31,454 nt of DNA from Brevinematia bacterium (GTDB lineage Bacteria; Spirochaetota; Brevinematia; DTOW01): positions 1-31,454 of the forward strand of contig JBKBIJ010000001.1 in NCBI GenBank assembly GCA_046299455.1, read 5' to 3'. Both the position numbers and the translations under genes were made by a program. The notes under the pieces were generated by a model that was not told the origin of the DNA, made no database searches, and saw only the letters and a list, made by a program, of their open reading frames with translations. This document shows, in pieces, positions 1,261 to 29,072 of this stretch. The stretch's first letter is position 1. Each line of letters opens with the position of its first letter.

Positions 1261-2459
1261 CTATACGACAAAACTATTATAAAAGATTTTTCTAAAATCT
1301 TTCTATAAATTACAGATTCTGTTTCAAAAATGTAACTTCGTTTCAAGTTCTTAATACATACCAAACTTCCATTTAAAATAACAAATAATATTCTGTCTTA
1401 AAAACTAAAGAAATATAAATTTACTAAAGATATGTAAAAAACAACTTATACTTTCGTTTTACTAATTAACATCAAATTCTCATCCAAGAGAGTGAGAATG
1501 TTTCAAAAATGATATTTTTCATTTAAAGACATCCAAGATATATACAGTAAATTGAATAAATCCTTAAAAAAGCATATTCCTCTAAGAAACTAACATTCCT
1601 AAAAATTATGGGACAGAAATAAGGATGTTTCAAAAATACTTTAATAATTAAAGATGTTCAAAAGTGTATTTAAGAAAAAAGAATAACTCTTTAAGAAAGT
1701 TTATATCTCAAAAACTACCTTCAGAAGTTACGTAAAAAATACCAATTATCCAAATAGGTTGTATGAAGGAACTTTAGAAGAAAGTTTGAGATATTTAATC
1801 TTTACAAAACACAACCTTTTAGATGTAGTTTATTAATATTATCCTCACTCAGAAAGAAGAGGATGCTTCTTCAATACTTAATGAGTTATAAGAAGTAGGG
1901 AAAATCTATAGAAAACCCTTAGCTTAATTGCTACGAAAAGTTAACTTTATTTAGAAGTTATACAAACGGAAGTATCATAAGATAGATTCTATAATAGTCT
2001 TAGAAATGATAAGAGAAAAAAAGAGGTCAATAAATTCAATTTATGACACAATCTTAGTCATAATTTCGTATATAAACTTGAGAGATAAAGGGAGAAGCTA
2101 ACAGAGAGTATGAGTATTATGTTTAGAACTTTTTACATAGCCTTGGTATAAAAAATATTCCTTAGGAATTCAATAACTTCTTAAGTGTACAAAGCTCCAA
2201 GAAAATATTATTTTTGGGAAGTTATGGAATAGAAGTAACTGTAATATCGACTTATGAGTAAATTGTAAAAATGAATAAGTGTTCTAAGTTTATATAAAAT
2301 TCCAGGAATACTCACTAAGAAACTACCATTCTTTAGAAGTTATAGAACATAAATACACCAAGAGAGTTTATATGGATAGTTTTTAAAGTCTCAAGAGAGT
2401 TATCTATCTTTTAGTAAAAAAATCTAATTTATTACGAAAATAATAAAGAGGTAAGAAGT
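1261..2459 (+). repeat. Cluster of degenerate dispersed-repeat (MITE-like) copies
   Basis: Left-terminus motif TGTTTCAAAAAT near 1320, 1499 and 1626; CTAAAAATTATGGGACAGAAAT near 1600; TTATCCAAATAGGTTGT near 1747; GAAGTTATGGAATAGAAGTA at 2218-2237; GAAGTTATAGAACATAAATACAC near 2337. No ORF in the track. Confidence 0.75.
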
Positions 2460-3320
2460 ATGGTAAGGGGGATATACACTGGTGCATCCGGAATGATAGC
2501 TCAACTTGATAATATAAACACTATAGCAAATAACCTAGCTAATATAAATACAACCTCATACAAAAGAGAAATAACTTTGTTTAAAGCATTTCCTGAAATG
2601 TTAGCAAGGAGAATTAATGATAACGGTATTGTTACTTTTCCATTGGGATCTTACGATAGAGCACCAGTAGTTGGCAAGTTTGGCACTGGGGTTGAAATCA
2701 ATGAAGTTCAAACTATATTTGATCAAGGATCTCTTAAACAAACAGAAAATCATTTTGATTTAGCGTTGGAAGGAGAAGGATTCTTTGTGGTTGAAACACC
2801 TGAGGGAATAAAATTAACTAGAAATGGTTCATTTAAAATAAGTAATGATAACTATTTAGTGACAAAGGAAGGTTTCAAAGTACTAGGTGAGAATGGGTAT
2901 ATAAGAGTAAAAATTGGTAATTTTAAGGTAGACAAGCAAGGGAACATTTTGATAGACCCAAACCATGATCCTTCAATTTTAGATGAATTTGTATCAACAG
3001 ACAGAAGTGATATAAAAGATCAGGAAATTATAGATAGAATAATGATAGTTAATGTGGATTTCCCAAGATACCTAAAAAAGGAAGGTCATTCCTACTATGT
3101 TATAACTGAACTCTCAGGTGAGATGAAGATATTAGATGGTCAAAAAAGACCTAAAGTACATCAAGGATTCCTTGAGGTATCAAATGTCAATCCCGTTATA
3201 GAAATGGTAAAAATGATATCAGCGGAAAGAACATATGAAGCTAATTCTAAAACTATACAAACCCATGATTCTCTATTAGGAAGGAGCGTAAATGAGGTAG
3301 GTAAAGGACTAAGTGCTTAA
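2460..3320 (+). CDS. flgF: Flagellar basal-body rod protein (FlgF/FlhO type; FlgG paralog not excluded)
   Basis: MVRGIYTGASGM...ANNLANINTT, DLALEGEGFF, TRNGSF, QGFLEVSNVNPVIEMVKMI: flagellar rod/hook N- and C-terminal motifs. Confidence 0.8.
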   Translation: MVRGIYTGASGMIAQLDNINTIANNLANINTTSYKREITLFKAFPEMLARRINDNGIVTFPLGSYDRAPVVGKFGTGVEINEVQTIFDQGSLKQTENHFDLALEGEGFFVVETPEGIKLTRNGSFKISNDNYLVTKEGFKVLGENGYIRVKIGNFKVDKQGNILIDPNHDPSILDEFVSTDRSDIKDQEIIDRIMIVNVDFPRYLKKEGHSYYVITELSGEMKILDGQKRPKVHQGFLEVSNVNPVIEMVKMISAERTYEANSKTIQTHDSLLGRSVNEVGKGLSA

Positions 3321-3876
3321 TAAAATCTGATATTTGCTTATAGAAGAGCTTAGTTATTTCAACGGAGATAAATCCAAGTAAAATGCCGATCAATACATCA
3401 GTTAAATAATGAACTCCTAAGTATATTCTTGATAGCCCTACCATTATGGCAAAAAATAATATTATAAATGCAGGTACAATAAAAAATTGTATTGTTACAA
3501 AAAATAATACAAAAATTGCAGCTGTGTGACCTGAAGGAAACGAATACCTATCAGGTGGTACTATAAGCCTTTTTATGGTTTGCCTATAATTTATATAAGG
3601 CCTTTTCCTAGCAACTATATATTTTATAATTTTCTGCAAGATAGTTTGAACAATCAATGAAACAGATAACAAAACACCAAAATCTAGATTAACAAAAATT
3701 AGAATAAAAACCGATAATAAAGTTAAAACCCACCAATCAGCTAATCTGGAAATTAACTTAAAAAATACTGTTATATAATTTCTCCTTATAGTGGCTAGTT
3801 TTGAGATGAACCAAAAATCAAACTTACCAATGAACGAAAATTTTCTTGATAAGTAACTTTTAAATCCCTTTAACAT
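3253..3876 (-). CDS. PAP2-family membrane phosphatase (undecaprenyl-PP/phospholipid phosphatase-like)
   Basis: All three PAP2 motifs: K(x6)RP (KYIVARKRP), PSGH, SR(x5)H(x3)D (SRIYLGVHYLTD). Confidence 0.9.
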   Translation of the reverse strand: MLKGFKSYLSRKFSFIGKFDFWFISKLATIRRNYITVFFKLISRLADWWVLTLLSVFILIFVNLDFGVLLSVSLIVQTILQKIIKYIVARKRPYINYRQTIKRLIVPPDRYSFPSGHTAAIFVLFFVTIQFFIVPAFIILFFAIMVGLSRIYLGVHYLTDVLIGILLGFISVEITKLFYKQISDFIKHLVLYLPHLRSFLIENHGFV

Positions 3877-3879
3877 AAC

Positions 3880-4212
3880 TTACTTAAATGATTTTACAGC
3901 TTCGTCAACAGATTCAGAATAATGAAATAAACTTTCAAGTTCAACGAGTTTTAATACTTTCCTTATATTTTGTCCAACGTTTGCGAGTCTTATACCACCA
4001 TTATTAGATGTAGTTCTTCTAAGAGATGAAATAAGAACTCTCATACCACTACTTGAGAGATGCTGTACGTCCGTAAAATCGAAAACTATCTTGTTTACAT
4101 TAGAATCTATTATGCTATTGACTTGCTTTTCCAATTCAAGGGCAGATTGAACATCTATTCTACCACTTAACCTTATTATAGAAACATCGCCAACCCTATC
4201 TACCTTAAACAT
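3880..4212 (-). CDS. STAS-domain anti-sigma-factor antagonist
   Basis: RLSGRID, IVFDFTDVQHLSSSGMRVL with the phosphorylatable Ser, 110 aa; strong RBS (AGGAGG). Confidence 0.9.
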   Translation of the reverse strand: MFKVDRVGDVSIIRLSGRIDVQSALELEKQVNSIIDSNVNKIVFDFTDVQHLSSSGMRVLISSLRRTTSNNGGIRLANVGQNIRKVLKLVELESLFHYSESVDEAVKSFK

Positions 4213-4230
4213 TTCAAAACCTCCTTTTTT

Positions 4231-7174: not shown

Positions 7175-7231
7175 GGAAGAATTATGATTTTTAAAACTAA
7201 CTTTTTTCAAACTTCCTCGATTATGTTTCAA

Positions 7232-7864
7232 AACATCACTTTACTTCTTAAAAGTGTTTAAAGACACGTCTAAGAATTGGGATAACTTTTTAGAAAATCC
7301 AACTATTCCTCTTCCAACTACTTCAAATAATTACTTTTCTCTAGAATTATGGAATATTAATACCATAAGAATAACTTACTTAACAGCTTTTAGAAAAGAT
7401 AAGTAAAAGAAAATACTTTGGTAATGGTGAAGTCTTCCAAGAACCACTGCTCCAAAAAACTACCTTCCTAAGAGATTGTGAAACAGAAATACTATTAAGA
7501 GTACTTATCTTAATATATGTTTATAGATACTTCTGAAGTCTGCCACTCTAAAAACTCCTTATCCTTGGAAGTTATGTAAAATGAATACCATAAGAAAATT
7601 TATCAGGACACTTTGTAAAAGAGGTGTTTCAAAAATTACCTTTCTAACTAAAAGTATTTGAGAATGTGTCCGATTAAATTCAATAACCTCTTATCTATCA
7701 CTCTAAGAAAATATCATTACTTAAGAGATTATAGAACAAAAAGTACTAATTTTCCAAATAGGTTTCAGTAAAGAAAGAGAAAAAAGATGGTCTTACAAAG
7801 CGGACAAAGTATTCCTTATTTCTTCTATGTAACCTAATACCAAAATCAATTATCATATAAAGTT
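7232..7864 (+). repeat. Cluster of degenerate dispersed-repeat copies
   Basis: CTAGAATTATGGAATATTAATACCATAAG near 7342; AAAAACTACCTTCC near 7455; GAAGTTATGTAAAATGAATACCATAAG near 7568; left terminus GAGGTGTTTCAAAAATTACCTTTCTA near 7621; TTTCCAAATAGGTTT near 7751. Confidence 0.7.
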
Positions 7865-8266
7865 ATGAAGAAAACTTTAGGTATACTCATAGTAATTTTA
7901 TTACTGCTAACATTACAAGTATACTCACAACCTAAATTTAGGACGGAATTTCCAAGATTAAAAAAGGTTATTCAAGAATTAGATTTGTCAGATGAGCAAA
8001 GGAAAGAAATAATCAGAATACTACACAACAGTATTCAAGAGATAAAAAATATAAGAACTCAAATATCCAAGCTTAAAAAAGAAAATATTGAAATTTTAAA
8101 ATCTTACCCACCAGATAAAGAAAAGTTCTTGAAAAACCAAGAAAAAATATCAGAACTTCTTGGAGAAATTTACTTAATTAGATCAAAGGATCTAGTGAAA
8201 ATAATCTCTATACTCAATGAAACCCAATACGAAAAATTTATTCAAAAAATATACCTATATGAATAA
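7865..8266 (+). CDS. Secreted Spy/CpxP-family (LTxxQ) periplasmic protein
   Basis: N-terminal signal peptide, two LTxxQ-like motifs (LDLSDEQ, ILNETQ), helical charged core. Confidence 0.75.
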   Translation: MKKTLGILIVILLLLTLQVYSQPKFRTEFPRLKKVIQELDLSDEQRKEIIRILHNSIQEIKNIRTQISKLKKENIEILKSYPPDKEKFLKNQEKISELLGEIYLIRSKDLVKIISILNETQYEKFIQKIYLYE

Positions 8267-8937
8267 TTGGTTTACTTTTAAAAACCTTAGTTTTTCACTA
8301 ACTTTTTCCTTTTTCCCGATATTCCTATATCCTTCATTGGTAGAAGGATTATCCCTGGATACCCCTTTAAAAATTATTTTCCTCTTCTCAAATTTCCTTA
8401 CAACTTAATAATAACTCAAATTCATAGCTAAGATTTTACAATACCTTTTTTATCTTTGCTTGCATATTATTGAGTTCAAATAAGACATTTACCACATAAA
8501 TAACTCTTAAACTACAAAAAACTATAATCATCAAAGTTATTAGAATACTTTTTACTAAGTTTATTGGGGTAGAAAATCATTAATTGTTTTTTGATTTAAA
8601 TCAACTACTAAATGTGGGCGTTAAATTTAGACTCATAAAAAAATTTAGGTTGTTTATTAGCAAAAATTACCAAAAGATATAAAACTACTATTCTTAAGAA
8701 AATTAATATCATTGTATGTAAGTACAAAAATTCTCAAAACAACTTTCAAATAATGTGGGGAAAATTAGATTCCTTAGAAAAGGAATGACACTATATATTA
8801 ACTAGAGAATTATGGACTGAAATTACCATCATAAGTGGAGTTGGAACTAAAATATTCTTACGTTGAAACAATAAAACCACCATCCTTAAGAGTTAATATT
8901 TCTACTGATTTACAAGAATCCTCAAAATGACTTAAAA

Positions 8938-9113
8938 ATGTTAAAAAATAATATTTCCTATTTGAAATCCAATAAATCCTTAAAAAACCTATTGCTTTAA
9001 TAAAATAATACTCCTAAAAAATTATGGTGTAGAAACACCAAAGCAAACTTAACTGAATGAGTTATAAGGAAGAACGTAGAAAAAAAGAAGATAGGAAATT
9101 GGGTTTATTACAA
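8938..9113 (+). mobile_element. Near-complete MITE-like repeat unit (~176 bp)
   Basis: Left end ATGTTAAAAAATAATATTTCCTA; internal AATAAATCCTTAAAAAA and CTCCTAAAAAATTATGG; right end TAGGAAATTGGGTTTATTAC (9092-9111), roughly inverted to the left end. Confidence 0.6.
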
Positions 9114-9500
9114 AACCTCAAAATGAATTTCAAGTAGTGGAAAAGGTTAAACCTTTTAGGGAAAGAATAACATTATGTATTAGCTTGGAGATTAAGGAAT
9201 ATGAAACCACTTTCATTAATAGAATTAAAACATTATTGCATTTAAGGGATTAAAAATTTCTGAAATTGGGTTTTGGATAGAAGTAAAATGTTACTTTTAA
9301 TTTTTCATTCTCTTAGGAGAATGTTTTCTGTATCTGGGTAAGAACTAATAAGCTACTATTACTAATAGAATCTGAATATTTCCTTTAGCAGAGGATAAGT
9401 TATAGAAAAATATGTTTGTACTTTTTGACAACTTCAAGAGAGAAAAAATTAATTAGGTACGAAATTACCATAGTTAAGAGATTTAGTATATTGTATGTAG

Positions 9501-10075
9501 GTGTTATCTGATAAGAGATTACAAAGATTTTTTGATCTGGTTTACGAAGAAGTGGTCCTTTTTATCTTTAGTATAAGAGACTTTAGGAGATAATTGAAGT
9601 GAGTAATCGTTGAAAGTGGTTTGTGAAGAGTATTATCAATGGAATTTGTAGTAATGTAATAAAGTTTGGACAGATTATAGTAATGGAAGTAATCTACTTA
9701 TGGGTAGAGATTATTTGAGGGGATATGAAGGTAATGGGAGATAGGTTATATGGTCAAAGGGTTAAGGTGCTTAAGAAGGTAGGAGGATTGTAATATGGTT
9801 CGATATGTTGTTTGGATGAGACGATGAGGAAGAAAGTTAGGTCTTAGGTAAGGGAAAGGGTAATGAGGGAGGGTATGTGCATAAGGGGATAATGGGAGGT
9901 AGGTATAGGATAGAGCGAGTATTTGGGGGTATAGGGGGGTATATAGTAATTATTTGAGGGTGAAGAGTATGGGGTAGTAAAGGTTATGGTTATATTGTAG
10001 AATGTTGCATGTCTACTCAGAGTGTTTTCTATACCTACTCTTGTAATGGTGTTTATAGGTTTTTGCAATAACTTA
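9501..10075 (+). pseudogene. Decayed DDE transposase (IS4/IS5-superfamily-like), central and C-terminal part
   Basis: Frame-broken motifs: MKVMGDRLYGQ (9725-9757, catalytic D-x-x-Y type), DETMRKKVR, GGRYRIERVFGGI (9895-9933, Y/R-x-x-IE-x-x-FG catalytic-E motif). Multiple stops and frameshifts. Confidence 0.7.
9852..9873 (+). other. Canonical G-quadruplex-forming motif
   Basis: GGG-AAA-GGG-TAATGA-GGG-A-GGG read directly from the sequence. Confidence 0.55.
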
Positions 10076-10142
10076 CTCTTAAATGGATATATAATATATG
10101 GTAATTTTAAAATTTAGTTCTTAGTGAGAGGTGGGGGTTATT

Positions 10143-11072
10143 ATGAAAAAGGTAGTTTTTGTTTTTCCTGGTCAGGGTTCTCAGTATGTTGGTATGGGGA
10201 AAGATCTTTACGAAAGATTTGAATACGTAAGAGAGTTGTATGATAAAGCTAGTGAGATAGTTGGTTTTGACATAAAAAGATTAGTGTTTGAAGGCAGTGA
10301 AGACGATCTTAAGGATACAGCAAATGCTCAGCCTAGTATTTTTCTGACTTCTTCGGTAATGCTTGAGGTTCTCAAGAGAGAGGCAAATGATAAATTTGAG
10401 TTAATTGCCTGTGCTGGGCATAGTTTGGGTGAGTATTCTGCGTTATACTGTGCTGGTGTTTTTTCTTTCGAAGATGGTATTAAGATTACTAGAAAAAGGG
10501 GTGAGCTTATGAGGGACGCTGATCCCGAGGGCAAAGGTGGAATGGCTGCTGTTATAGGGCTTGATGTAAATAAAATAAAAAAGATATGTGGCGAGCTCAC
10601 CAATAATGGCAAGTATGTTGAACCTGTAAACTATAATTCTCCTGACCAAACTGTTATTTCTGGATATAAAGATGCAATAAAAGAAGCTTCTGAGAAGCTT
10701 AAGTCTGAAGGTGCTAAAAGAGTTATAGAACTTGCGGTTTCAGGAGCTTTTCATTCGAAAATGATGGAAGACTCTGCTAGAGAATTCAAAAAATTTCTCT
10801 TATCATTTAATATAAATTCTCCAAAGTTCATAGTTTTTGCAAACTACAATGCTAGTCCGTATCCATCAAAAAAAGAAGACATGATAGAGATTATGGAGAA
10901 ACAAATGTACTCTCCAGTGCTTTGGGTAGACATAGTTAAAAACATTGCATCATTAAGCCCAGATCTAGTTATAGAGGTTGGACCAGGACAGGTACTCAAA
11001 GGATTAATCAAGAAAATTGTTCCCAATATCGAAGTTACTAATTTCTCTGTAGATTTACTAGATACTTTCTAG
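10143..11072 (+). CDS. fabD: Malonyl-CoA:ACP transacylase
   Basis: FVFPGQGSQ, AQP, GHSLGEY, VSGAFHS, EVGPG. ATG 10143 preferred over the GTG at 10131. Confidence 0.97.
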   Translation: MKKVVFVFPGQGSQYVGMGKDLYERFEYVRELYDKASEIVGFDIKRLVFEGSEDDLKDTANAQPSIFLTSSVMLEVLKREANDKFELIACAGHSLGEYSALYCAGVFSFEDGIKITRKRGELMRDADPEGKGGMAAVIGLDVNKIKKICGELTNNGKYVEPVNYNSPDQTVISGYKDAIKEASEKLKSEGAKRVIELAVSGAFHSKMMEDSAREFKKFLLSFNINSPKFIVFANYNASPYPSKKEDMIEIMEKQMYSPVLWVDIVKNIASLSPDLVIEVGPGQVLKGLIKKIVPNIEVTNFSVDLLDTF

Positions 11073-11976
11073 ATTTTGTAAAAACTTTAGAACGAATCAT
11101 TCAAGTCTATGTTAAATAACCAATTATTGTTATTTTAGTAGTTTTTCCTTAGTTTTAGAAAATCCAAAAAATATTTTTGTATCCAAAAATTATCCAAAAA
11201 TAATGTACAAAAAGAGAATCTCTTGCATTAAATGGATTTAAATTCCAGGATATGGAGATAAAGATGTAGAGTTGGAGTGAAAATGTTTCAAAAATGTTAC
11301 TTTCATGTTTAAAGGGGCTTTGGCGCATAATTTTGAGAGTTAGCTTTTCAGAAAAGTCTTGTAACATTTATTTTCCAAGGTATATAGCTAAATCTTATTG
11401 TCTATTCACCAAAGCGGTGATATTTTTTTACACACTTACTTGTCTTCTAGGAGTTGTTTTAAAGAGTTTTTGTAATTTAAGATAACATCGTTATATAAAT
11501 AACCTTCTAGTTTTGGAACATACTACCATATCTAGAAAGGGTAGGAAGCTAAACTTCAAAGGACAAAATCAAAAAACATACATCTTGTTATAGTTAATGC
11601 AGGAATAAAGATATATGGAGAAGTGGAGTAGGGAACATTAAAGCATAGGAGAAAGAAGATTGAATGGACAAAAATACCAATGCTCGTATATGTAAGGATC
11701 CATTACTTTAAGAAAATATTTTTATTAAGAGAAATTATGGAACATAATAATAGCATTTTGTCTAAATAGGTTGTAAGTGAGAATGTGGGAAAAAGAGATT
11801 TAGGAAATTGGATTTTTGATACACTATGGAATTGGGTTGTAAAATTTTAGTTGTGGGTTAATGAGTAAGTACTAAAGAAGTTAGAAAATAACTTTTTGGT
11901 AAGTTAGTTGAAAGGAGATTTTTGTCAGAAAGAGTATTAAACGTGCGATAAAAGAATTAGTAGAAAAACTATAGAT
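11073..11976 (+). repeat. Cluster of degenerate dispersed-repeat copies
   Basis: GAGTGAAAATGTTTCAAAAATG at 11275 (1 mismatch to 1490); GAAATTATGGAACATAATAATAGCAT near 11731; TTTAGGAAATTGGATTTTTGATACA at 11799-11823, identical to 13166-13190. Confidence 0.8.
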
Positions 11977-12828
11977 TTAAATTTGTTGTATATAATTTTT
12001 TAGCCAACTACGGAACTCTTCTTTTAATTCTGATTGTTCAAGTATATATCTTACAAAAGATTTCGAATATTCAATAGGGGTTCCTGTGTCAAAGAATTCT
12101 TCTTTTTTGACTTCTATTCCTAGCACTTTGCCTTCTCTGCATAACTTATTTATTGCGTCTATATGATAAAATTCTCCTTTACCATTGAATTTTTCCCAAT
12201 CCTCCTTAAGAAATTTCATAAACTCTGGTGTAAAAAGATATCTTCCAATAGTAACGTATGAGGAGGGTTCTTTTCCTTTAGCTGGTTTCTCTACTATTTC
12301 GTTTACTTCGAATAGGTTGTTGATTTTTCTTACTTTTGCAACACCAAATCTTTGTAAATCTTCACCGCTTTTATCTATTATAGATATTACATTTTTATTA
12401 GAGGATTTGAATATTTCAACTAACTTTTTGCTCAAAGATGGCTTTGAAATTACTATATCGTCTGGATAAAGAAGGATGAAAGGATCATTCCCTATAAAGC
12501 TGGAAGCTTCGATGATAGCGTTACCTACTCCAAGCATTCTTTTTTGCCTAACAAAGCAAATGTTTGCATTTGGAGGTAATATAATCTTTTCTTTTTCGGT
12601 GCCTTTGAAAAAAGATTCTAGCTCAAATTCTACATCAAAATAATCATCCAAGCTCTTTTTCCTTCTGCTGGTTACAATAATTATGTCCTTTATTCCAGCT
12701 TCGATAATTTCATTTATGCTAAAATGGATGGATGGGATGTTATATAAAGGTAGCATTTCTTTCGGAATTGTTTTCGTTATAGGTAAAAACCTGCTACCGT
12801 ATCCAGCGGAGATTATAAGTGCTTTCAT
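11977..12828 (-). CDS. galU: UTP-glucose-1-phosphate uridylyltransferase
   Basis: AGYGSRFLPITKTIPKEMLP, RQ...LGVGNAI, VEKP, GRYLFTP. Confidence 0.93.
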   Translation of the reverse strand: MKALIISAGYGSRFLPITKTIPKEMLPLYNIPSIHFSINEIIEAGIKDIIIVTSRRKKSLDDYFDVEFELESFFKGTEKEKIILPPNANICFVRQKRMLGVGNAIIEASSFIGNDPFILLYPDDIVISKPSLSKKLVEIFKSSNKNVISIIDKSGEDLQRFGVAKVRKINNLFEVNEIVEKPAKGKEPSSYVTIGRYLFTPEFMKFLKEDWEKFNGKGEFYHIDAINKLCREGKVLGIEVKKEEFFDTGTPIEYSKSFVRYILEQSELKEEFRSWLKNYIQQI

Positions 12829-13013
12829 GATTTAATTTTATAACATTTGTAAGAAAAGTATCTAATTTCATACTTAATATATATTTTGGACTTGAATAGG
12901 TGACCTTAGAGGTGGCAACTTTTAAAATCTCATCAGAATAATGCATTTCTGATTCTCTTGATTTAGACTTTGATAAAACGCGGTAAGATGTTTTTGGTTT
13001 TAGAGTTAGGTAT

Positions 13014-13190
13014 TGTTTCAAAATTTGTAGAAGTTTCTAGAGTCTATCGTTCTATGGAACTGAAATTCTTAAAGAGTTTTATATAACAATAATACCGTAA
13101 AAGAGTTTATCCAAATAGGTTTTAAGTAATAATATAATTTGTAGTGGGATGTGGGTAAAATAAGGTTTAGGAAATTGGATTTTTGATACA
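13014..13190 (+). mobile_element. Best-preserved MITE-like repeat unit (177 bp)
   Basis: Left end TGTTTCAAAAT (13014-13024) versus right end ATTTTTGATACA (13179-13190; reverse complement TGTATCAAAAAT). Internal TATGGAACT...AATACCGTAA...TTATCCAAATAGGTT modules are shared with other copies. Confidence 0.65.
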
Positions 13191-13267
13191 TTTATTGTAC
13201 AATTTCTTGTAAAACTTTAAATTTTATTAGTAATTTATTTAAAATAACAGATTACTGGAGGGAAATT

Positions 13268-13528
13268 ATGGCTAAGGATCCTAATGTAAAGGATAGAAGT
13301 AGAGGTAAAGGATTGGGTGTTAAGCTGTATGATGGGCAGTTTGCCAAAGCTGGTAGCATAATAGTTAGGCAAATAGGTAATAGGATATATCCGGGTGAGA
13401 ATACAGGTCAAGGAAGAGACTTTACTATTTTTGCTCTTAAGGATGGTGTTGTTAAGTTTTACACAAGGAGGGGAAAGAAGTTTGTTAGTGTTAGAGAAAT
13501 TTCTAGTGGGGGATTAGATGATAAGTAA
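13268..13528 (+). CDS. rpmA: 50S ribosomal protein L27 with divergent N-terminus
   Basis: [16 protein letters not shown]....[19 protein letters not shown] is the L27 core; GGAGG RBS at 13257. Confidence 0.9.
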
Positions 13529-13868
13529 GGAAAAATTAGAAGAATTAAAAGAAAGGTTATCTAAAGAAAAATTACAAATACTTTCCGATATCTTTGGAGA
13601 AGAAGTAGCTATAAAGAGTTTTGTAAGTCAATCTGAAGGTGATATTGCTGATAAAGCTAGTGATTTTTATGAGTCTCAGTTGCTTGCAAGTATTTCTGGG
13701 GTTCAAAGGGAAATAATAGACAAGATAAATGAAGCGCTTAGAAGGATTGAAGATGGTGTTTATGGTAAATGTAGAATGTGTGGTAGTCCTATAGAAATAG
13801 AGAGGTTAGAAGCAATTCCGTATACCGATATTTGTTCTGAGTGCGCTAAAAAGACTGTAAGAAGGTAA
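13518..13868 (+). CDS. dksA: TraR/DksA C4 zinc-finger protein
   Basis: Coiled-coil with DxxD tip (GDIAD); [25 protein letters not shown]...CSEC. Confidence 0.85.
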
Positions 13869-13875
13869 TATATTT

Positions 13876-17867: not shown

Positions 17868-17952
17868 AATCTACCTCTTAGTATAAAAAAGTTAAAGAAA
17901 TTACCAAAAAAAATCAAATTATTTTCTGCTTCATTGGAAAATTATCGGATTT

Positions 17953-19641
17953 ATGAAATATAATAAACACTATATGGCATTGGGTGACGTCTTAGTTGAA
18001 ATGGGGATTTTGACAAAGGAGGAATTGGCTGTTTACTTACAAAAACAAAAGCTTTCAAACAAAAGATTAGGTGAACTATTGGTTGATGAAGGTAAGATAT
18101 CTGAAGAAAAACTATATAGTATTTTATCCAATGAATTTAACGTAAACTTTGAAGATAATATAGATCTTCCTCCGGATGAGAAAATAGGTATTTTGTTGTC
18201 TATTTTGCCTATAGAGTTTTGTAAGAAGAAAAATGTTGCTCCTATAGATTATAAAGGTGATTTTATTGTTGTGGCTATAGACAATCCTTCTGATTTTGAT
18301 GTTGTAAGTGAGATAAGGTTTATAACTGGTAAACATGTTGAAACAAGGTTTGCTAAAACATCTGCAATAAAAAAGTACTTGTCTAACCTTCAGGGTTCCA
18401 TTTCAGGTAAGGTTGACAATCAAAAACCAAAGATTGAAAAGAAACTTTTCCAAGAGGAAAAAGATACTAAAAAGGTTGAAAAAGAAGAAAGTAAGATTGT
18501 AATGTTGGTTAATAAGATAATATCTGAGGGAATTGAGAAAAAAGCTAGTGATATACATCTTGAAGTGTATGAGAACAGAGTTTTGTTAAGGTATAGGATA
18601 GATGGTAAGCTCTATAAATTCGATGGTCCTCCCTTAGAGCTATACTCTGGTGTCGTTTCTAGGATAAAAATTATGTCTAACCTCGATATTTCTGAAAGAA
18701 GATTGCCACAGGATGGTGCTATAAAGTTTTCTTATTCCGGAAATGATATTGATATAAGAGTATCTATTATTCCAGGGATATATGGAGAGAATATAGTTAT
18801 GAGGATACTGTCAAAGGATACTACAATTATCTCTAGCCTTTCTTCAATTGGGATGAATGACCAAGAAGTTATGGTATATAGGGAATCTCTAAGTAAGCCA
18901 AATGGAATTATACTTGTTACTGGGCCTACCGGTAGTGGTAAAACTACAACACTTTATGCAGGGATAATGTATATAAAGCAATTTGATAAGAAGATTATAA
19001 CAGCTGAAGATCCAGTTGAGTATCAGATAGATGGAGTAGAACAAGTACAAATAAACCCTGAAATTGGTTTTACTTTTGCCAATGCTTTACGTTCATTCTT
19101 GAGACATGATCCAGATGTAATAATGGTTGGAGAAATTAGAGATACTGAAACTGCTGAAATTGCAATCAGAGCTGCTTTGACAGGACATCTTGTTTTGTCT
19201 ACATTACATACAAATGATGCTCCTTCATCTATAACAAGACTTGTTGATATGGGTATACCTCCTTATTTGGTTGCTTCTACCTTAAATGTTGTTATAGCTC
19301 AGAGATTAGTTAGAAAATTATGTGATCACTGTAAAGTAGAAAAAAAGATTGATGTTTCAAAATTTGATCCAAAACTTCGAAAATATTTTAAGGATGGTGA
19401 AATTGTATTTTTACCAAAAGGATGTTCCAAGTGTAATGGAACAGGATTTAGAGGTAGAATACCAATTTTCGAAATATTAAAAGTCGATGAAAGTATAAGA
19501 GAAGGTATATTGAAGAATTTGTCTTCGTTTGAATTGAAAGAAATAGCGATTAAAAATGGTATGAAAACTTTATTCGATTCAGGAATGGAAAAAGTAAAAA
19601 GTGGAATTACTACTATTGAGGAAATTGTTGCTATTACTTAG
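17953..19641 (+). CDS. pilB: PilB/GspE-family secretion/pilus assembly ATPase with N-terminal MshEN-type domain
   Basis: ASDIHLE, DISERRLPQDG, GPTGSGKTTTL, EDPVEY, LRHDPDVIMVGEIRD, CxxC...CxxC zinc site; N-terminal LG..L...G repeats. gspE cannot be excluded. Confidence 0.85.
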   Translation: MKYNKHYMALGDVLVEMGILTKEELAVYLQKQKLSNKRLGELLVDEGKISEEKLYSILSNEFNVNFEDNIDLPPDEKIGILLSILPIEFCKKKNVAPIDYKGDFIVVAIDNPSDFDVVSEIRFITGKHVETRFAKTSAIKKYLSNLQGSISGKVDNQKPKIEKKLFQEEKDTKKVEKEESKIVMLVNKIISEGIEKKASDIHLEVYENRVLLRYRIDGKLYKFDGPPLELYSGVVSRIKIMSNLDISERRLPQDGAIKFSYSGNDIDIRVSIIPGIYGENIVMRILSKDTTIISSLSSIGMNDQEVMVYRESLSKPNGIILVTGPTGSGKTTTLYAGIMYIKQFDKKIITAEDPVEYQIDGVEQVQINPEIGFTFANALRSFLRHDPDVIMVGEIRDTETAEIAIRAALTGHLVLSTLHTNDAPSSITRLVDMGIPPYLVASTLNVVIAQRLVRKLCDHCKVEKKIDVSKFDPKLRKYFKDGEIVFLPKGCSKCNGTGFRGRIPIFEILKVDESIREGILKNLSSFELKEIAIKNGMKTLFDSGMEKVKSGITTIEEIVAIT

Positions 19642-19648
19642 GTAAGTT

Positions 19649-20632
19649 ATGTCGAAATTCCCTAATCATGAAACTTTTAAAGAACATAAAACATTTCCCC
19701 AAAAGTTTGTTGAAAAGTTTATCTACTTTGATGATTATACCTTTCTTAGCAGAAATATTTTCCCTAAAAAAATGAAAAAATGTTATGTGTATGATATAAA
19801 AGATCAAAAAATTGCAGATTTCTTCCTAGATTACGGTAGGTTATACCTAGGATTTTCTGATAAGTTTATTACAAAGATGGTAAAAAATTACCTTAAAAGT
19901 ACTATTTTTTCTTACTCTACCGGAATATTTACATATAGATTTTTGAAGTTGATCAATGATCTTACTTGTAAAGAATTTAGGAATATATTTTTTGCTAGAA
20001 GTTTGTCTTCTTTGGGAGATATTTTATCTATGTTACTGGGGAAAAATTTTTCAGTCAATAGTTATTATACTTCTATTGTTTTTGGTAAAAAATTGGATAC
20101 TAATAATCCCGATGTTTTCGAACCTTTTAATGAATTTTTTTTGCTGGAAGATTTCCCTACGAGTATAAGATACCTCTTCTTAGGAAGAGGCATAAGGTAT
20201 TATGAGGTTCTGGAGAGATTGAGTTGTATCGATATAGGTGGGATTGTTATGAGTTTTGGTAGATTTTTTGTTGTTCTTTCTAACGAGAGAATTTTGAATA
20301 AAAGTAAAGATTTTTCCTTTGTATCGGAATTTGAATCTATGATTGGTTACTATTACTTGCTTAGAGAAAAGTTTTTGATTTCAAGAAAAATTTATAGATT
20401 AAAAAACTACACTGAGCGATGGTTAAAAAAATTTGTTGATATTGGTGTTGCGGATGGTTTGTCTCCTTATGCTATTTATTTCTCCAAAAAGCCTGAATAT
20501 TTTCATGATTACCTAATTAGGGAAGGTATTTTTTCTTACGGTAATACTTTGTTTTTTTCTTTTCAACACGATGAAAATGATTTTAAAAGACTTAGGAGAA
20601 AGTTGAACCAAGTTTTTGGTATATCGTCTTAA
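19649..20632 (+). CDS. Highly divergent class-III aminotransferase (HemL/GSA-aminomutase-like) fold protein, probably catalytically inactive
   Basis: By-eye alignment: [23 protein letters not shown] ~ [33 protein letters not shown] ~ [29 protein letters not shown] ~ GVYL...FLSxAHxEEDI. Confidence 0.55.
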   Translation: [327 protein letters not shown]

Positions 20633-21165
20633 ATTAGCTTGAACGATTTTATAGGGTAATATCTTGGATTTGGATGTGCAAGTTCACTTTTGTAAAGAAT
20701 GAACTCTTTAACATCAAATTCACCAAAGTCTTTATTATAAGCTTTGAGAATTTCTTTTAGCTTTTGGATGTTTGTAATGGTTTTGAACCTAGCTAATGTT
20801 ATATGCGGAGAAAATTCCCTTTTTTCTTTGGGGATTTCTATATTTTCAAGACTTCTCTCTATAATTTTGAATAGTGATTCCATCTCCTGGTTTTTTTCTA
20901 TTCCTACCCAAAATACTCTAGGAGCGTGTGTATTAGGGAAAACTCCTACGTTTTTTAGACAAATTTGGAATTTTTTAAATGTTATTTTATCGAGGATTCC
21001 TAAAATTTCTTTTGTTTTTGTGGTTTCTCCTATGAATTTAAGAGTTATGTGAATGTTTTCCATGGGAACTACTTTGGCGTTTAAGGAGCTTAGTTTCTCA
21101 GAGATTTCTGAGAACTTAATTTTTATTTCTTCTGGAACATCTATTGCTACAAATAACCTGTCCAT
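20629..21165 (-). CDS. thpR: RNA 2',3'-cyclic phosphodiesterase (2H phosphoesterase)
   Basis: RLFVAI start, two HxT motifs (HITLKF, FSPHITLAR), PRVFWVG. Confidence 0.93.
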   Translation of the reverse strand: MDRLFVAIDVPEEIKIKFSEISEKLSSLNAKVVPMENIHITLKFIGETTKTKEILGILDKITFKKFQICLKNVGVFPNTHAPRVFWVGIEKNQEMESLFKIIERSLENIEIPKEKREFSPHITLARFKTITNIQKLKEILKAYNKDFGEFDVKEFILYKSELAHPNPRYYPIKSFKLI

Positions 21166-21173
21166 AGGTTTGA

Positions 21174-21944
21174 CTAAAACGGTTTGAATAGGTCTTTTAT
21201 AGTTCTATTGTCTGGTATATCTTCAAGTATTTTGTATTTTTTTAGTATTACAGTGAACATTGCAATGAGCAAGGAATTTACAAGACCTTGGTAAAATAAC
21301 ATCATCCCTACAGCACTTATGAAAGAAAATATGAATATTGGTACTATTGTAAGTACGGTTAAGAATACAATGAAGACATTATCCATCATTATTACCCAAG
21401 ATCTGTTTACGGACGTTTTTATGTTATCTTTTGGGAAGAATACAATGTAAAGTGATAGTATAACGAAGAATAATGTAAACACTACCAAATACCAAAAAGT
21501 TATTACTATCAATATCATTCCTATGATGTTGTTGCCAAAGAATGATGAGTAGAAGATCATAGAAAATATTGCTAGGAAGTATACGAGGGCCGTTATTATT
21601 GTAAACAATATCGATTTACCAATGTTTTCTTTTATTCCTTGGAAAAATTCCTGAAAAAGTTTTTTATGAGTGTTTGTCGAAAAATTTCTAATAACTGTTA
21701 GAAGACCTATTTGAGTTGGAAAGAATATACTACTACCAAATAATATAGACATTACTAACCAAAACAAGTTTATTTCTTCGGGTGATGGTGGTGGTTCAAT
21801 TGGTATTCTGGCGAATATAAATAGACCCATTGTAAAAAAAAGCGTTGGAATATTTGTCAGGAATCCCAGAATACTTATTATTATGTTTTTTGAAAAATTG
21901 TCCCACCATAACCAAAAAAATTCTTTGAGTACTCTTATCCACAT
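21174..21944 (-). CDS. Integral membrane protein (DUF624/YesL-like)
   Basis: Five to six hydrophobic helices and FFQGIKENIGKS, resembling the DUF624 pattern; recognised by eye only. Confidence 0.55.
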   Translation of the reverse strand: MWIRVLKEFFWLWWDNFSKNIIISILGFLTNIPTLFFTMGLFIFARIPIEPPPSPEEINLFWLVMSILFGSSIFFPTQIGLLTVIRNFSTNTHKKLFQEFFQGIKENIGKSILFTIITALVYFLAIFSMIFYSSFFGNNIIGMILIVITFWYLVVFTLFFVILSLYIVFFPKDNIKTSVNRSWVIMMDNVFIVFLTVLTIVPIFIFSFISAVGMMLFYQGLVNSLLIAMFTVILKKYKILEDIPDNRTIKDLFKPF

Positions 21945-22029
21945 TTATTGCTTACCTCTCTAGAATTCTAATCTAACTTTAAGTTTATTTTCTACCTATA
22001 GTACTAATCTTTAAATTTGTTACGATAAC

Positions 22030-22452
22030 ATTTGAAGTCCGTTACTTCCTAAGACCTATCCAGATATGCTTTATTACGGTATTTCCCCTACAACCTCTAA
22101 AAGAAAGATAGTTTCCTAAACTGATCATTTTAGGAGTTTTCTGTAAATTTAGAAAACCTATTTCTCGCTAAAACTTATTTAGACAGATGCTATGAACCTT
22201 TTTAGGGTTTTATCCGGTTTCTTACCTATATTTTCGGGTACCTTAAATGATAGTTTTTTGATATCCTAGGAGTTTTCTCATAAATTTAGAACATTTATTT
22301 TATCTTAAAACTTGCTTAAACAGATTTTACTATTAGGGTACTTCTATTCCATAACTCCTATAAAATGGTATTTTCATCAGATAGCCACACCTTAAGCAGT
22401 GTCAAAAATCTAGTTTACTAATTTTCTATAAGTTTTGGAACACTCCCTCAAC
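22030..22452 (-). repeat. Reverse-oriented copies of the dispersed repeat
   Basis: 22339-22355 is the exact reverse complement of 2221-2237 (GTTATGGAATAGAAGTA). Reverse-complement modules TCTAAATAAGTTTTAG (near 22170), TATCTGGATAGGTC (near 22055) and GATTTTTGACAC (near 22400). GAGTTTTY..TAAATTTAGAA recurs near 22134, 22270 and 22870. Confidence 0.7.
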
Positions 22453-22536
22453 CCCTTTTTTAAATGATTAACCAACTTCTTAACGATATTTTTTTAGACC
22501 TTTAAGAGAGATATGTTCTTATCACAGTACTTTCGT

Positions 22537-22815
22537 TCAATAATTTCTAAAGAATGATAATTCTTTGAAGTGATAGTCATTTTTGAGTGTGGTATTTTCT
22601 AGGGTGGTAGGTTTTTTCAAGATTTGTTTGGTCAAGGTCAGTAATTTTTTATAGCTCAGGTGGTTAAGTATTTTTAAAAGGAATAGGATTGATATTATTG
22701 GTTCCTGGTATGTTTGAGGTCTGCTCATTTTTGATGTTTTTGCGGGTAGATAATTTTTGTAGAATAATTGGGTTAGTTTGTAAATGTAAGAAACTTCTAA
22801 GTTAGCAATTCCCAT
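22537..22815 (-). pseudogene. Truncated transposase N-terminal fragment (IS4/IS5-superfamily-like)
   Basis: MSRPQTYQEPIISILFLLKILNHLSYKKLL resembles the GRPxxY..ILxLFLxxxLxxLSYRxL N-terminus of DDE transposases. Only 92 aa; a terminus-like sequence lies just upstream. Confidence 0.6.
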
Positions 22816-22843
22816 AAGAAAAAAATCATAACAAAATCTTGCT

Positions 22844-22859
22844 ACTTTTGAAGCACCCT
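22844..22859 (-). mobile_element. Putative left terminal inverted repeat of the decayed IS
   Basis: Minus strand AGGGTGCTTCAAAAGT, 28 nt upstream of the transposase ATG, followed by a TGTTATGAT -10-like box. Resembles the repeat terminus GAGAGTGTTTCAAAAAT. Confidence 0.5.
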
Positions 22860-22860
22860 A

Positions 22861-24180
22861 TTCCTCTAAGAGTTTTACATAAATTTAGAATTACTTACTC
22901 CTTCTTATAACTTAATTAGATATGCTATCTTATAAAACCTACAGGATTTTTTAAGGTATTATCAAATTCCTAGTGATATTTTCGAAAACTTTTAAAAAGA
23001 AGTTTTGTCCTTAAGTAGTTAGATAATTTCTTAGGTTGTATATTTTTTAAGAACCTTTAAGTAACGAAAGTAATATTTTTTTAAACGTTCTTACTAAAAA
23101 TTGCATTTTAGGGAGTACTCATATTCTTGGCATACATTCAATTCTCATGGAATTAATTCTTCTGAATACTTTTCTCCAAAAAGTTAACCTTAGGGATTCT
23201 TCTTTTTATCACAATGAAATTTAAAGCATAGGATTTTTCGAAAATATTAACTTTCTACTTAAATTTGAGAGCGTTTCAAAAATTTAGCCTATATCTATAC
23301 TCTTAGTATCAACAAAAGAAGTTCTCACATGAATATGCTAAATTCATAAAAAATCTTAAGTCCTATTGCTTCAGAAAATCATCTTTCTTTAAATACCACC
23401 AGATATGAATAGCATAAAATAACTTACCCGAATGAGAGTGTTTCAAAAATATTACTTTCCTACTTAGAAGTGAAAATATTTCAAAAATAGTATTTTACTA
23501 TTTAAATGTATTCAAATACCTTAGTGAATCGGATAAATTCTTAAGAAATCTACAACTTTAGAAAACTAGCGTTTCTAAAAAATTAAGGAACAGAAGTACT
23601 ATATAAGAGCACCCTTGTAAAAAGAATGAGATTTAAAACTCTTAAGAGAACAAATTCAAAAAAAAATTACTACTCTTTAGAGGTTGTTAAAACAGAAGAA
23701 AAAAGAGGTTATCTAAATAGTCTTTTTAGTAAGGATTATGAAAGAAATATACTCAGGAAGAAATTGGATTTTTTAGGCACAACAACTTTTTAAAGTTTCA
23801 AAGAAATATCACCGAGAAATTGGACTACCTCTAAAATAAAGTATCGTTTGAATAAACCACATTTTTAAGAAGGCACGTAACAAAAAATTACCATAATAAG
23901 ATATCATATCTGAATAAGTTTTAAGAGAAAAAATAAATATTCTAAAATTTATACGAAACTCACTAAGTGAGTAAATTCAAAAAAGAAAGTATCTAAAGAA
24001 TGCTATTTCTTACTTAGAGATGTTCAAAACATATCTAATAAATTGGATAACCACTTAGAAGGAGTTTGTTACTCAAAAAATACTTTTCTTCAGAGTTTAT
24101 AGGATGAAAGTACTAATTGCCCAAATATTTTGTAAGGAAGAACGAAAAAGTGTAAATTATTTTTTTGATACAACATCATT
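22861..24180 (+). repeat. Large cluster of degenerate dispersed-repeat copies
   Basis: GAGAGCGTTTCAAAAAT near 23268 and GAGAGTGTTTCAAAAATATTACTTTCCTA near 23434. About 125 bp at 23472-23597 is colinear with 1495-1620. TTATCTAAATAG near 23709, GAAATTGGATTTTTTAGGCAC near 23760, TTTTTTGATACA ending at 24172. Confidence 0.75.
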
Positions 24181-24249
24181 TTTTTGGATACTTGATTTTT
24201 GTGAGGAATTTCTATAAAAATAACCTAATAAGTTTTAAAGGAGGTTTAA

Positions 24250-25326
<1,077 letters not shown>

Positions 25327-27173: not shown

Positions 27174-27850
27174 TTTTATACTTGTTTTTCGTTTTCCAAT
27201 TGCCTCTGTTTTCTTATGGTAATATTGGTGATAAGATTGTGTTTTTTGCTAAAAGATTTTTAGGAATACCTTATGATGTTGATCCTTTGGGAATCTATGT
27301 AAGGAAAAAGGTAATAGTTTATGATGAACGTGTTGATTGTATGTATTTGATTTTTAGAAGTGTCGAGTTAGCTTTTTCTGATGGAAATGATAGGGTTGCA
27401 TTAGATATTGCTCTCGATAAAAGGTTTATCAGTAGAGGTATGGTTAGTAATTCTATGGTTGTTAATTATGAAACTAGATTTGAATATGGTGAAGATATGA
27501 TTTTAAGCGGTAAGTGGGGAAAACCTTTGATAACTAATGAGAACATTCTTGAAAAAGTTTTTTCTAGAAGGCTTAATAGAAATATTTTTTTTGTTCCGAA
27601 AAGCAAGTATGATTGTATTGAGCAGTTTATTAAGAATGGTAGTATAATTTTTTTTATTAAAAATCCTAAATATAGCAAAAAAAATGAAGTTGTAGGGCAT
27701 ATGGGAATATTAGAAAAAGTTTCTAATGATGTTTTTTTAATACATGCTAAGGGAACTAAGAATGTTGGCGGTAAGGTTGTTAGAGAGAATATGAAAGATT
27801 ATTTAGAGAGTACTAAATATATAGGTTTTGTTATAACTTATTTTGAATGA
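27146..27850 (+). CDS. Secreted NlpC/P60-superfamily amidase (DUF1460/AmiA-like)
   Basis: Signal-like N-terminus; AKRFLGIPY..DPLG, VDC (catalytic Cys), GHMGI (His), FLIHA. Confidence 0.7.
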   Translation: MAKGNFKNLVLYLFFVFQLPLFSYGNIGDKIVFFAKRFLGIPYDVDPLGIYVRKKVIVYDERVDCMYLIFRSVELAFSDGNDRVALDIALDKRFISRGMVSNSMVVNYETRFEYGEDMILSGKWGKPLITNENILEKVFSRRLNRNIFFVPKSKYDCIEQFIKNGSIIFFIKNPKYSKKNEVVGHMGILEKVSNDVFLIHAKGTKNVGGKVVRENMKDYLESTKYIGFVITYFE

Positions 27851-28404
27851 TTGTTTCTTGTTAGTGATATAAAGTAATTATAGCCGAATTCTGCTGCTTT
27901 CTGGTTTGAAGATACTATTTTTGTTTTTCCTTTTTCTGAGAAGAATTTTTCGATACCTTTTAGTAGGAATTCGAAGTCATATAACTTTGATAATGCCATT
28001 AGTCCACCGATCATTACCATGTTAACGAATCTAGGGTCTCCTAAGTCAAAGGCTATAGAATTAGCATCTATGTGATAGATTTTTATGTCTTGTCTTTTTG
28101 GTGGTATGTTAACTAATGAGGAATTATATAGTAATATGCCATCTTTCTCTAACCATCGTTCAAATTTTATTACAGAAGGTTGATTAAAACAAACAACGAT
28201 GTTAGGTGATTGAGTCACAGGAGAAGCTACTTCATGATCATCTATTATTACAGTGCAATTTGAAGTACCTCCTCTTTGTTCTGCTCCGTAGGAAGGGAAA
28301 AAAGTGGGGTATTTGCCAGATATTATAGCTCCGTAGCAAAGAATCATACCTGCCGACAAAACGCCTTGTCCTCCAAAACCCGAAATTATTATCCTGTTTT
28401 CCAT
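27838..28404 (-). CDS. 2-oxoacid:acceptor oxidoreductase gamma subunit
   Basis: SGFGGQGVLSAG, PSYGAEQRGGTS, NMVMIG. Confidence 0.92.
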   Translation of the reverse strand: MENRIIISGFGGQGVLSAGMILCYGAIISGKYPTFFPSYGAEQRGGTSNCTVIIDDHEVASPVTQSPNIVVCFNQPSVIKFERWLEKDGILLYNSSLVNIPPKRQDIKIYHIDANSIAFDLGDPRFVNMVMIGGLMALSKLYDFEFLLKGIEKFFSEKGKTKIVSSNQKAAEFGYNYFISLTRNNHSK

Positions 28405-28459
28405 ATATCAAACTCCTATCTTCAAAATATTATTTATTTGTTACTTTGATTTTCAATAA

Positions 28460-28960
28460 AATTATAGGGATGTTCAAAAACATCAACTTCCTATTTAAAA
28501 GTCTTCATAAATGTTGCTAATATATAAAATGAATCCTTAAAAATGATAAAGATATTTTTTTGTATTAAAATCTAAAGAGAATCAATCCAAAAAACAACAG
28601 TGCATCAAAAATATCACCTCTCCCACTTAGAGATATTGAAAATATCCCTAATGGATTGGATGTTTTAAAAAGTCCAATACTCCTAAAAACCACCATTATT
28701 AAGAAGTTATAGAAACACTCGTTTTGATAGTATGCCTTTTCTGCATTAATCTTATTTTGTTTATTTGTTTGTATGATTTTTGTTTTTATAGTGTGGTATT
28801 ATTTCTAGATTTACGGAGACTTCTAAGGTCTTTCTATCTCAGTAGAGTATATTTCTCTAGAAGTTATGGAACATGAGTAATACCATAATAGAAATTAAGC
28901 AAATAGCTTCTAGGAAGGATAGGTGAAAAAATAGACTTAGGAAATTAGATTTTTAATACC
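28460..28960 (+). repeat. Cluster of degenerate dispersed-repeat copies
   Basis: GATGTTCAAAAACATCAACTTCCTA near 28469; ACTTAGAGATATTGAAAAT near 28626; CTAGAAGTTATGGAACATGAGTAATACCATAA near 28857. 28901-28959 is colinear and equal in length (59 bp) to 11764-11822. Confidence 0.75.
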
Positions 28961-29072
28961 GCTTTCTAAAAAGCAGCTATATGAAAAGAAAAGTATAAAA
29001 TTATTCGAAGAAGGGAAAGATGTTATTTTAGGAGAGAAAAAATATTTAACACTGTAGAGTTATGAAATAGAC

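Follow-up and report, generated by a model that had tools for sequence, protein, structure and literature searches.

The intergenic DNA of a Brevinematia bacterium is occupied by a modular repeat family that is real and striking both in its amount and in its arrangement. We describe it from a stretch of 31,454 nt (contig JBKBIJ010000001.1 of assembly GCA_046299455.1; the entire contig C1 of the genome bin, below called the window) and from the bin as a whole, which originates from a hot-springs metagenome and comprises 1.92 Mb in 285 contigs, with 31% G+C and 89% completeness. With a probability of roughly 0.6, we interpret these repeats as decaying remnants of a non-autonomous modular element that underwent a lineage-specific burst and was mobilised in trans by a resident insertion sequence (IS), here termed IS-B. 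The family is unlike a classic dispersed or nested MITE (miniature inverted-repeat transposable element).

Amount, anatomy and age of the repeat family

Profiles generated with nhmmer and iterated over the whole genome converged on three modules: a unit of 139 nt (∼800–1,000 matches), a tail with a profile of 119 nt, and an alternative linker, B, of 63 nt. The first unit profile turned out to be a dimer of the 139-nt unit. Genome-wide, the profiles matched 1,007 units, 247 tails and 191 linkers, corresponding to 1,005, 242 and 184 modules after overlaps were resolved, and a BLASTN search of the window gaps against the genome returned ∼1,300 matches. An earlier note on the window had reported that the same ordered modules recur in its long gaps. 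This is borne out by repeat search and by nhmmer, which found 1,063 unit and 285 tail matches in the intergenic DNA and none of either in the same DNA after dinucleotide shuffling. The matching segments on which the note relied were likewise recovered: the direct pair 11799–11823 and 13166–13190 as 11776–11823 and 13143–13190, with the last ∼25 nt identical, an inverted pair as 2201–2237 and 22339–22375, and the colinear segments as 1550–1618, 8966–9034 and 23527–23595 and as 9053–9106, 11762–11815 and 28899–28952. The arrays are also present, with 0–4 differences, in independent Logan contigs of the source run, indicating that they are not an artefact of one assembler.

Unit, tail and linker modules together cover 128.5 kb, or 6.7% of the genome and ∼28% of its intergenic DNA, and occur on 197 contigs. 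The arrays explain the fragmentation of the assembly: the family is present at 25% of the contig ends, compared to 6.7% genome-wide. In the window, nhmmer gave 27 unit and 7 tail matches, and the 34 modules present there account, at E≤0.01, for 2,968 nt, 9.4% of the window and 37% of its gap DNA; adding up weak matches and two IS remnants brings the share to roughly 12–13%. The estimate of up to about a quarter of the window given in the earlier note is thus too high, and a quarter is the total non-coding share of the window. With 139 nt for the unit and ∼205 nt for unit plus tail, the modules have no coding capacity and remain below the MITE size limit of ∼600 bp. Almost all copies (804 of 813) are intergenic, i.e., outside open reading frames (ORFs) of at least 90 aa.

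Each unit starts with GAGGATGTTTCAAAAAT, followed ∼20 nt further on by a second, similar motif in direct orientation, GTGTTCAAAA, and ends with a small palindrome, TTATGG...CCATAA. The unit is followed by the M4 motif, which consists of TTATCCAAATAGGTTGTAAG and a purine-rich stretch, and M4 is in turn followed by the next unit, by linker B or by the tail end, ...GAATTTTTGACACAGCATC. We counted 350 transitions from unit to unit and 164 from unit to tail, a tail following a quarter of the units. The tail closes the array in 104 of ∼150 cases; in other cases a 46-nt linker, M6, leads into another unit. The period from one unit to the next has its mode at 140–180 nt, and the G+C content of the units is 20–33%. 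Many units are truncated and lack the 5′ end, and the 3′ end is reached by 78%. The imperfect inverted termini of ∼25 bp proposed earlier exist, with a conserved core of 17 rather than 25 nt: the unit start, GAGGATGTTTCAAAAAT, and the reverse-complemented tail end, GATGCTGTGTCAAAAAT, agree at 14 of 17 positions. Searches with these motifs gave 983 left-end and 249 right-end matches, versus 345 and 26 on a reversed-sequence control.

Identity to the consensus averages 75% among 384 near-full-length units. Two units have a pairwise identity of 63.2% if they are adjacent, 63.4% if they are non-adjacent members of one array and 63.2% if they come from different contigs, indicating a star phylogeny without recent local duplication or homogenisation and arrays that are as old as the family itself. 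Recent tandem duplication of units is ruled out, since neighbours are no more alike than random pairs; multimers formed at the time of the burst remain compatible with these values. How well a position is conserved depends on its consensus base: A is kept at 83%, T at 78%, C at 60% and G at 56%, or ∼80% for A/T and ∼58% for G/C positions, and transitions dominate, which is the outcome of neutral decay in an AT-biased genome. The location of nearly all copies outside ORFs fits purifying selection against genic insertions.

Termini shared with IS-B and the origin of the arrays

A DDE transposase gene is present in the genome as fragments, and the best copy, IS-B, is split over contig ends. The left junctions of IS-B, on C113 and C17, share 77 identical nt with the end of C22, an overlap that yields an element of ∼1.0 kb. 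IS-B is a resident element of the IS4/IS5 superfamily. Its transposase fragment matches PF01609 with 34 bits, above the curated cut-off of 23 bits, and, weakly, an IS5-family NCBIfam model. The two ends of IS-B, GAGGGTGTTTCAAAAAT and the reverse complement GAGGCTGTATCAAAAAT, match at 15 of 17 positions, and a 10-nt flank, TTCATTTTAT, adjoins both of them, indicating that IS-B makes a 10-bp target duplication. The best copy of the transposase gene lies at C22:15053–15783 (L090:1486–2211) and has a stop between a 59-aa N-terminal and a 181-aa piece.

The consensus sequences tie the repeats to this element. The unit start matches the left end of IS-B at 16 of 17 positions, and the tail end matches the right end at 15 of 17. 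Moreover, in the window, on C17 and on C113 a copy of IS-B is found in an array exactly where the next unit would begin, and in the same orientation; on C17 and C113 it is located at the downstream end of the array, in the orientation of the array. IS-B copies lie within ∼15–25 nt of a tail end. If the repeats are relics of trans-mobilisation, the IS-B transposase would have recognised the 17-nt termini, and new copies would have been added beside existing ones in the same direction, through insertion targeted to the element's own ends or through insertion of multimers. Both routes could lead to head-to-tail arrays with many left ends per right end, insertions in genes would have been removed by selection, and today the arrays would mostly act as non-coding bulk, enlarging intergenic spacers and providing homology at dispersed sites. 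For the chaining itself, candidates are end-targeted insertion in a fixed orientation, as hinted by the IS-B copies at array ends, insertion of multimers, and amplification at the time of the burst. A further contribution to the orientation bias may come from a loss of inverted neighbours, which would form long palindromes.

Several observations weigh against such an origin. Adjacent modules have the same orientation in 1,008 of 1,037 pairs and the opposite one in 29, and left ends outnumber right ends ∼4:1, which is not what independent cut-and-paste or copy-and-paste insertion gives. Among the 423 arrays, the median length is 2 modules and the 90th percentile ∼8, with an upper limit at 20 modules or 2.7 kb. 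When 193 pairs of left and right ends were compared for target-site duplications, 10-mer matches equalled random pairing, without any excess at offsets from −10 to +6; at the expected identity of ∼58%, a duplication signal should still show if many pairs were true partners. Two single exceptions carry a duplication, namely a 201-bp element at C51:5513–5714 with two left-type inverted ends (9 of 10 bp) and a nested 54-bp element in the window (22396–22449) with a duplicated host segment at both flanks. Furthermore, the Logan contigs of the source run show no empty site or insertion polymorphism; “joints” seen in them have short sides and derive from other copies. The unit interior has no detectable similarity to the interior of IS-B, so that the two are linked by their termini only, and the IS-B frame on C22 contains an in-frame stop, which could reflect a pseudogene, a sequencing error or a recoding site. 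What holds of the MITE-like family postulated in the earlier note is an old, highly amplified, non-coding and non-autonomous element with IS termini. The behaviour of a classic dispersed or nested MITE is not supported, as most copies lie end to end and share one orientation, and target duplications are undetectable over the 193 end pairs.

Head-to-tail arrays with a period mode of 140–180 nt and a same-orientation adjacency of 1,008:29 would also be produced by satellite-like tandem repeats that were amplified locally, through slippage, unequal crossing-over or multimers from rolling circles, and that recombination dispersed. IS-B would then merely share the 17-nt motif, have captured it, or prefer to insert beside it, as its position ∼15–25 nt from tail ends might suggest. 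The lack of general target duplications and the duplication of multi-module segments between loci (e.g., 565 nt at 92% between C2 and C153) are in line with this explanation. We nevertheless regard it as unlikely, as units next to each other resemble one another no more than units from different contigs do, 423 arrays over 197 contigs need a dispersal mechanism, the match to IS-B covers both of its ends in inverted orientation, and two small elements possess both ends together with a ∼10-bp duplication. A more far-reaching version of the transposition model, which is possible and which we put forward tentatively, is that the element proliferates by orientation-specific insertion beside its own ends or as multimers, resulting in satellite-like unidirectional arrays and in a genome share (6.7%, ∼28% of the intergenic DNA) above that reported for any single bacterial MITE family. 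If true, this would constitute a new mode of MITE amplification, and an inflated genome in a small-genome thermophile lineage that is expected to be streamlined.

No sign of a function was found for the repeats, and their origin is probably selfish. A role as functional cis-elements, either as binding-site arrays for a DNA-binding protein, such as a nucleoid protein or one derived from a transposase, or as promoter or leader modules that regulate downstream genes, could explain why 27% of the genes have a module within 600 nt upstream, why position-specific conservation is uneven within base classes (standard deviation 0.12) and why the right end contains the hexamer TTGACA in 325 of 376 copies. 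The arrays also point towards the nearest gene start in a ratio of 51:33 in tandem and 74:52 in divergent spacers (p ∼0.06 each), an orientation bias that is weak at best. Such a role is improbable given the remaining data. Counted by gene, the closest module upstream is co-oriented in 211 and anti-oriented in 178 cases, which is not significant (p=0.10). Promoter delivery as suggested by a per-copy count of 472:155 in favour of co-orientation with the downstream gene was rejected as an artefact, because divergent spacers score every copy as co-oriented and the members of an array are not independent. There is no excess of −10 boxes 16–18 nt after the right-end TTGACA over shifted control windows, and in the two largest gaps consensus scans revealed promoter-like sites at or below the shuffled expectation and no terminators. 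Moreover, the decay tracks mutational bias, and congeners live without the arrays. A structured non-coding RNA or cis-acting RNA element in each unit, the alternative raised in the earlier note, is highly improbable. It would account for the three or four short palindromes of the consensus, with 74.6% pairing cells compared to 39–55% when the partners are slid. However, there are no Rfam matches at the gathering score, RNAalifold found no conserved pairs among 60 copies, and on the plus strand the folds of single copies do not surpass those of shuffles (z-scores from +0.4 to −1.4). The covariation of a hand-drawn four-hairpin structure is marginal and barely above column shuffles, 14–19 of 500 being as good, which is within the false-positive range stated for the tool. 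No RNA run was found to contain the locus.

Restriction to one genome and comparison with known repeats

Among the genomes searched, the repeat family and IS-B were found only in the source genome. A sequence-only covariance model that detects at least 113 matches there gave no credible match to the family in 30 relatives, including four of the same genus, and BLAST agrees; the best foreign match is weak and lies within a 301-aa ORF of a congener. An exact 19-mer that occurs 12 times in the source genome has only single chance matches among 185,579 species genomes, and of the matches of two patterns in JGI metagenomes, none proved real when re-scored by the covariance model. No IS-B transposase was detected within the genus, its only relatives being 28–44% identical proteins in one genome of another genus of the same taxonomic family.

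Sampled loci of congeners have a coding share of 89–91%, compared to 76% in the source genome. Their longest spacers measure 341–715 bp, whereas the source genome has 84 spacers of at least 1 kb. Small thermophile genomes are normally compact. One repeat family explains much of this difference, and the source genome offers a clean natural case of intergenic DNA being inflated by a single IS-linked element. It also raises the question of how modules that bear transposase ends become chained in one orientation.

Gene order differs from that of the congeners as well, and the ∼420 dispersed arrays are likely substrates for this extensive scrambling. In the congener G003 (G003:C54), 122 bp lie between the genes for GAPDH and the V-ATPase d-subunit, which are neighbours in divergent orientation. 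In the source genome they are separated by 17 kb of other genes (window 7232–24252) and each is bordered by arrays; the adjacency is missing in a second congener, G004, too. The intergenic DNA is too diverged from that of G003, where the GAPDH upstream spacer is 122 bp, for an exact empty-site alignment. Gene blocks that are delimited by repeat-bearing gaps in the window are found on different contigs, or 60 kb away, in both congeners: the genes for CheW, the rod protein, FabD, the nucleotidyl transferase and GatA are distributed over five contigs in G004 and four in G003, where those for FabD and the nucleotidyl transferase share one contig at a distance of 60 kb. Since the congeners also differ from each other in gene order, the scrambling is not specifically attributable to the arrays.

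The closest comparison is with prokaryotic MITEs that are mobilised in trans by an IS, such as Correia, RUP with IS630-Spn1, Chunjie and Nezha (PMC10969869). Like these, the repeats are short, non-coding, AT-rich and nearly all intergenic, include many truncated or decayed copies, are confined to one lineage, and have terminal inverted repeats that match a transposase-encoding IS of the same genome. In contrast to MITEs, which are scattered singly, the copies are chained head to tail in one orientation with ∼4 left ends per right end, and target duplications are not detectable as a rule. The 6.7% of the genome contributed by one family exceeds the prokaryotic figures we found in the literature. 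Eight MITE families together make up 1.8% of the Microcystis aeruginosa genome (PMC2779907), the maximum quoted for ERIC (enterobacterial repetitive intergenic consensus) is 711 copies, and according to a 2024 review nothing like the 8–10% of plants has been seen in prokaryotes (PMC10969869).

The fit to BOX of Streptococcus pneumoniae and BrickBuilt of Porphyromonas gingivalis is loose. Unlike in these elements, every module of the source genome carries its own left inverted repeat, linkers B and M6 intervene, and modules within one array are as diverged as unrelated copies. The boxB internal module of BOX is much shorter than the 139–175 nt of the internal module described here. The likeness consists of a leader-(internal repeat)n-tail organisation with small inverted ends, internal modules that vary in number, an intergenic location and restriction to one species (PMC3184786, PMC4596501). 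The internal module of BrickBuilt has 23 nt, and with 19 BrickBuilt copies the copy number in the source genome is one to two orders of magnitude higher (PMC4596501).

Bacterial interspersed mosaic elements (BIMEs) of enterobacteria and neisserial intergenic mosaic elements (NIMEs) offer a further parallel. In contrast to both, the modules of the source genome are AT-rich, lack a stable fold and all point in the same direction. The repetitive extragenic palindromic (REP) stem-loops in BIMEs alternate in orientation, and in NIMEs 20-bp dRS3 inverted repeats bracket the repeat units. Common to all of them are extragenic clusters composed of a few recurring motifs with a loose grammar, and BIMEs and NIMEs have been associated with genome rearrangement (PMC3184786, PMC1797815). 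BIMEs are composed of G+C-rich REP stem-loops (PMC3184786). Membership in the REP/BIME class was ruled out by the 20–33% G+C of the units, folds that equal those of shuffles, and the same orientation in 1,008 of 1,037 pairs. Taken together, module size, composition and orientation set the family apart from BOX, BrickBuilt, BIMEs and NIMEs. A CRISPR array was ruled out as well: the repeats are 139 nt long and 63% alike with periods of 100–260 nt, as opposed to near-identical repeats of 24–48 nt separated by unique spacers of similar length.

Modules, IS remnants and further repeats

The genes of the window have ordinary housekeeping and motility functions and include those for CheW, CheX, a flagellar rod protein, V-type ATPase subunits, FabD, L27, DksA, GatA, ClpB, a PilB-like ATPase, GAPDH and Pgk, among others. 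They form blocks split by seven gaps of 0.4–2.3 kb each, which make up 26% of the window. No tRNA and no Rfam family was detected in the window by tRNA and Rfam searches. An ORF of 133 aa at 7865–8266, between two repeat-bearing gaps, has no Pfam family above cut-off and is a possible gene.

Unless noted otherwise, the following modules are nhmmer profile matches on the plus strand. Array 1 (1492–2357) comprises units at 1492–1621 and 1622–1742, partial units at 1915–1980, 2145–2239 and 2315–2357, a tail with the right inverted repeat and the M6 linker at 1748–1861, and linker B at 2253–2303. Array 2 (7219–7767) contains units at 7219–7369 and 7623–7742, partial units at 7429–7495 and 7536–7594, and an M4 motif at 7748–7767 that belongs to family D15 of the repeat search; an independent Logan contig spans 7000–8682, including this array, with one difference. 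A single element at 8930–9120 consists of a 5′-truncated unit (8930–9040) and a tail with the right inverted repeat (9053–9120). A solo left end at 11277–11317 corresponds to unit positions 1–40, including the left inverted repeat, and at 11695–11827 a 3′ fragment of a unit (11695–11747) is followed by a tail with the right inverted repeat (11759–11827). The gap 12829–13267 contains only a weak, internally deleted copy, at 13009–13192. It was read from the sequence, with support from repeat families D2 and D6 and a tail match at 13110–13190 (E=0.004), and comprises a left-repeat-like start, a 3′ unit fragment, M4 and a right inverted repeat identical to that at 11799–11823.

Array 4 (22075–23090) is on the minus strand, with a unit at 22334–22509, partial units at 22075–22141, 22189–22248, 22524–22588, 22907–23002 and 23009–23090, and linker B at 22131–22191, 22267–22325 and 22867–22929. 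Nested in its unit 22334–22509 is the 54-bp mini-element at 22396–22449 (minus strand), which consists of left and right inverted repeats only; comparison by eye with the unit consensus shows the segment TTAAAAAGGT of the host unit on both sides of it. A Logan contig covering 20963–22883 in this region is identical to the window, as is one for 23437–24322 in Array 5. The latter array (23230–24185) has units at 23230–23416, 23470–23603 and 23985–24114, a partial unit at 23787–23895, a 5′ fragment at 23433–23472, another fragment at 23661–23697, linker B at 23904–23961 and a tail with the right inverted repeat at 24119–24185. In Array 6 (28468–28964), a unit at 28600–28714 and partial units at 28468–28545 and 28826–28880 are joined by a tail with the right inverted repeat at 28900–28964.

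Two remnants of IS-B-type transposases are present in the window. A Pfam scan gave no match for either, and both were identified only through the better IS-B copy on C22. The decayed C-terminal remnant at 9587–10003 (plus strand) coincides with a G-rich island and contains the motif RYRIERVFG; it has 61% nucleotide identity over 462 nt to IS-B on C22 and a protein match at E=9.6e-6 with 3 stops. The N-terminal remnant at 22537–22860 (minus strand) corresponds to a 92-aa ORF of the ORF list and was also found by tblastn. Its left inverted repeat, at ∼22841–22860, directly follows linker B at the position expected for a unit start, and at the nucleotide level it is 73–78% identical to the left IS-B junctions of C113 and C17, and 82% identical to C80. 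The two remnants, on opposite strands, represent IS-B nt ∼1–236 (N-terminal) and ∼450–908 (C-terminal). Inverting ∼9587–22536 would join them in one orientation, with ∼210 nt still missing; as the halves differ in their divergence from IS-B (73–78% versus 61%), one split copy is a candidate explanation only.

The Logan contig for 8653–9387 of the window has a word depth of 31, compared to ∼10 in its neighbours, and 4 differences, which suggests that this 735-nt segment exists in about three near-identical copies in the population or the genome.

The genome holds more repeat classes than the unit/tail/linker family. A second, unrelated IS, IS-A, is represented by segments of ∼1 kb with 82–97% identity at C5:8337–9380, C113:5920–6897 and C2:24455–25010 and on C73, C99, C224 and C264; it carries an IS5-family transposase pseudogene with internal stops (NCBIfam NF033579, E=1.5e-33; PF01609; PF13737), and its termini are unlike the unit. 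Further young repeat families, with 96–98% identity over ∼300–355 nt, lie outside or partly outside the unit, tail and linker profiles and are represented by the pairs C19:13552–13860 and C93:2948–3255, C55:1–300 and C61:7583–7882, and C30:6172–6526 and C195:1–353, the last of which carries linker B and a partial unit.

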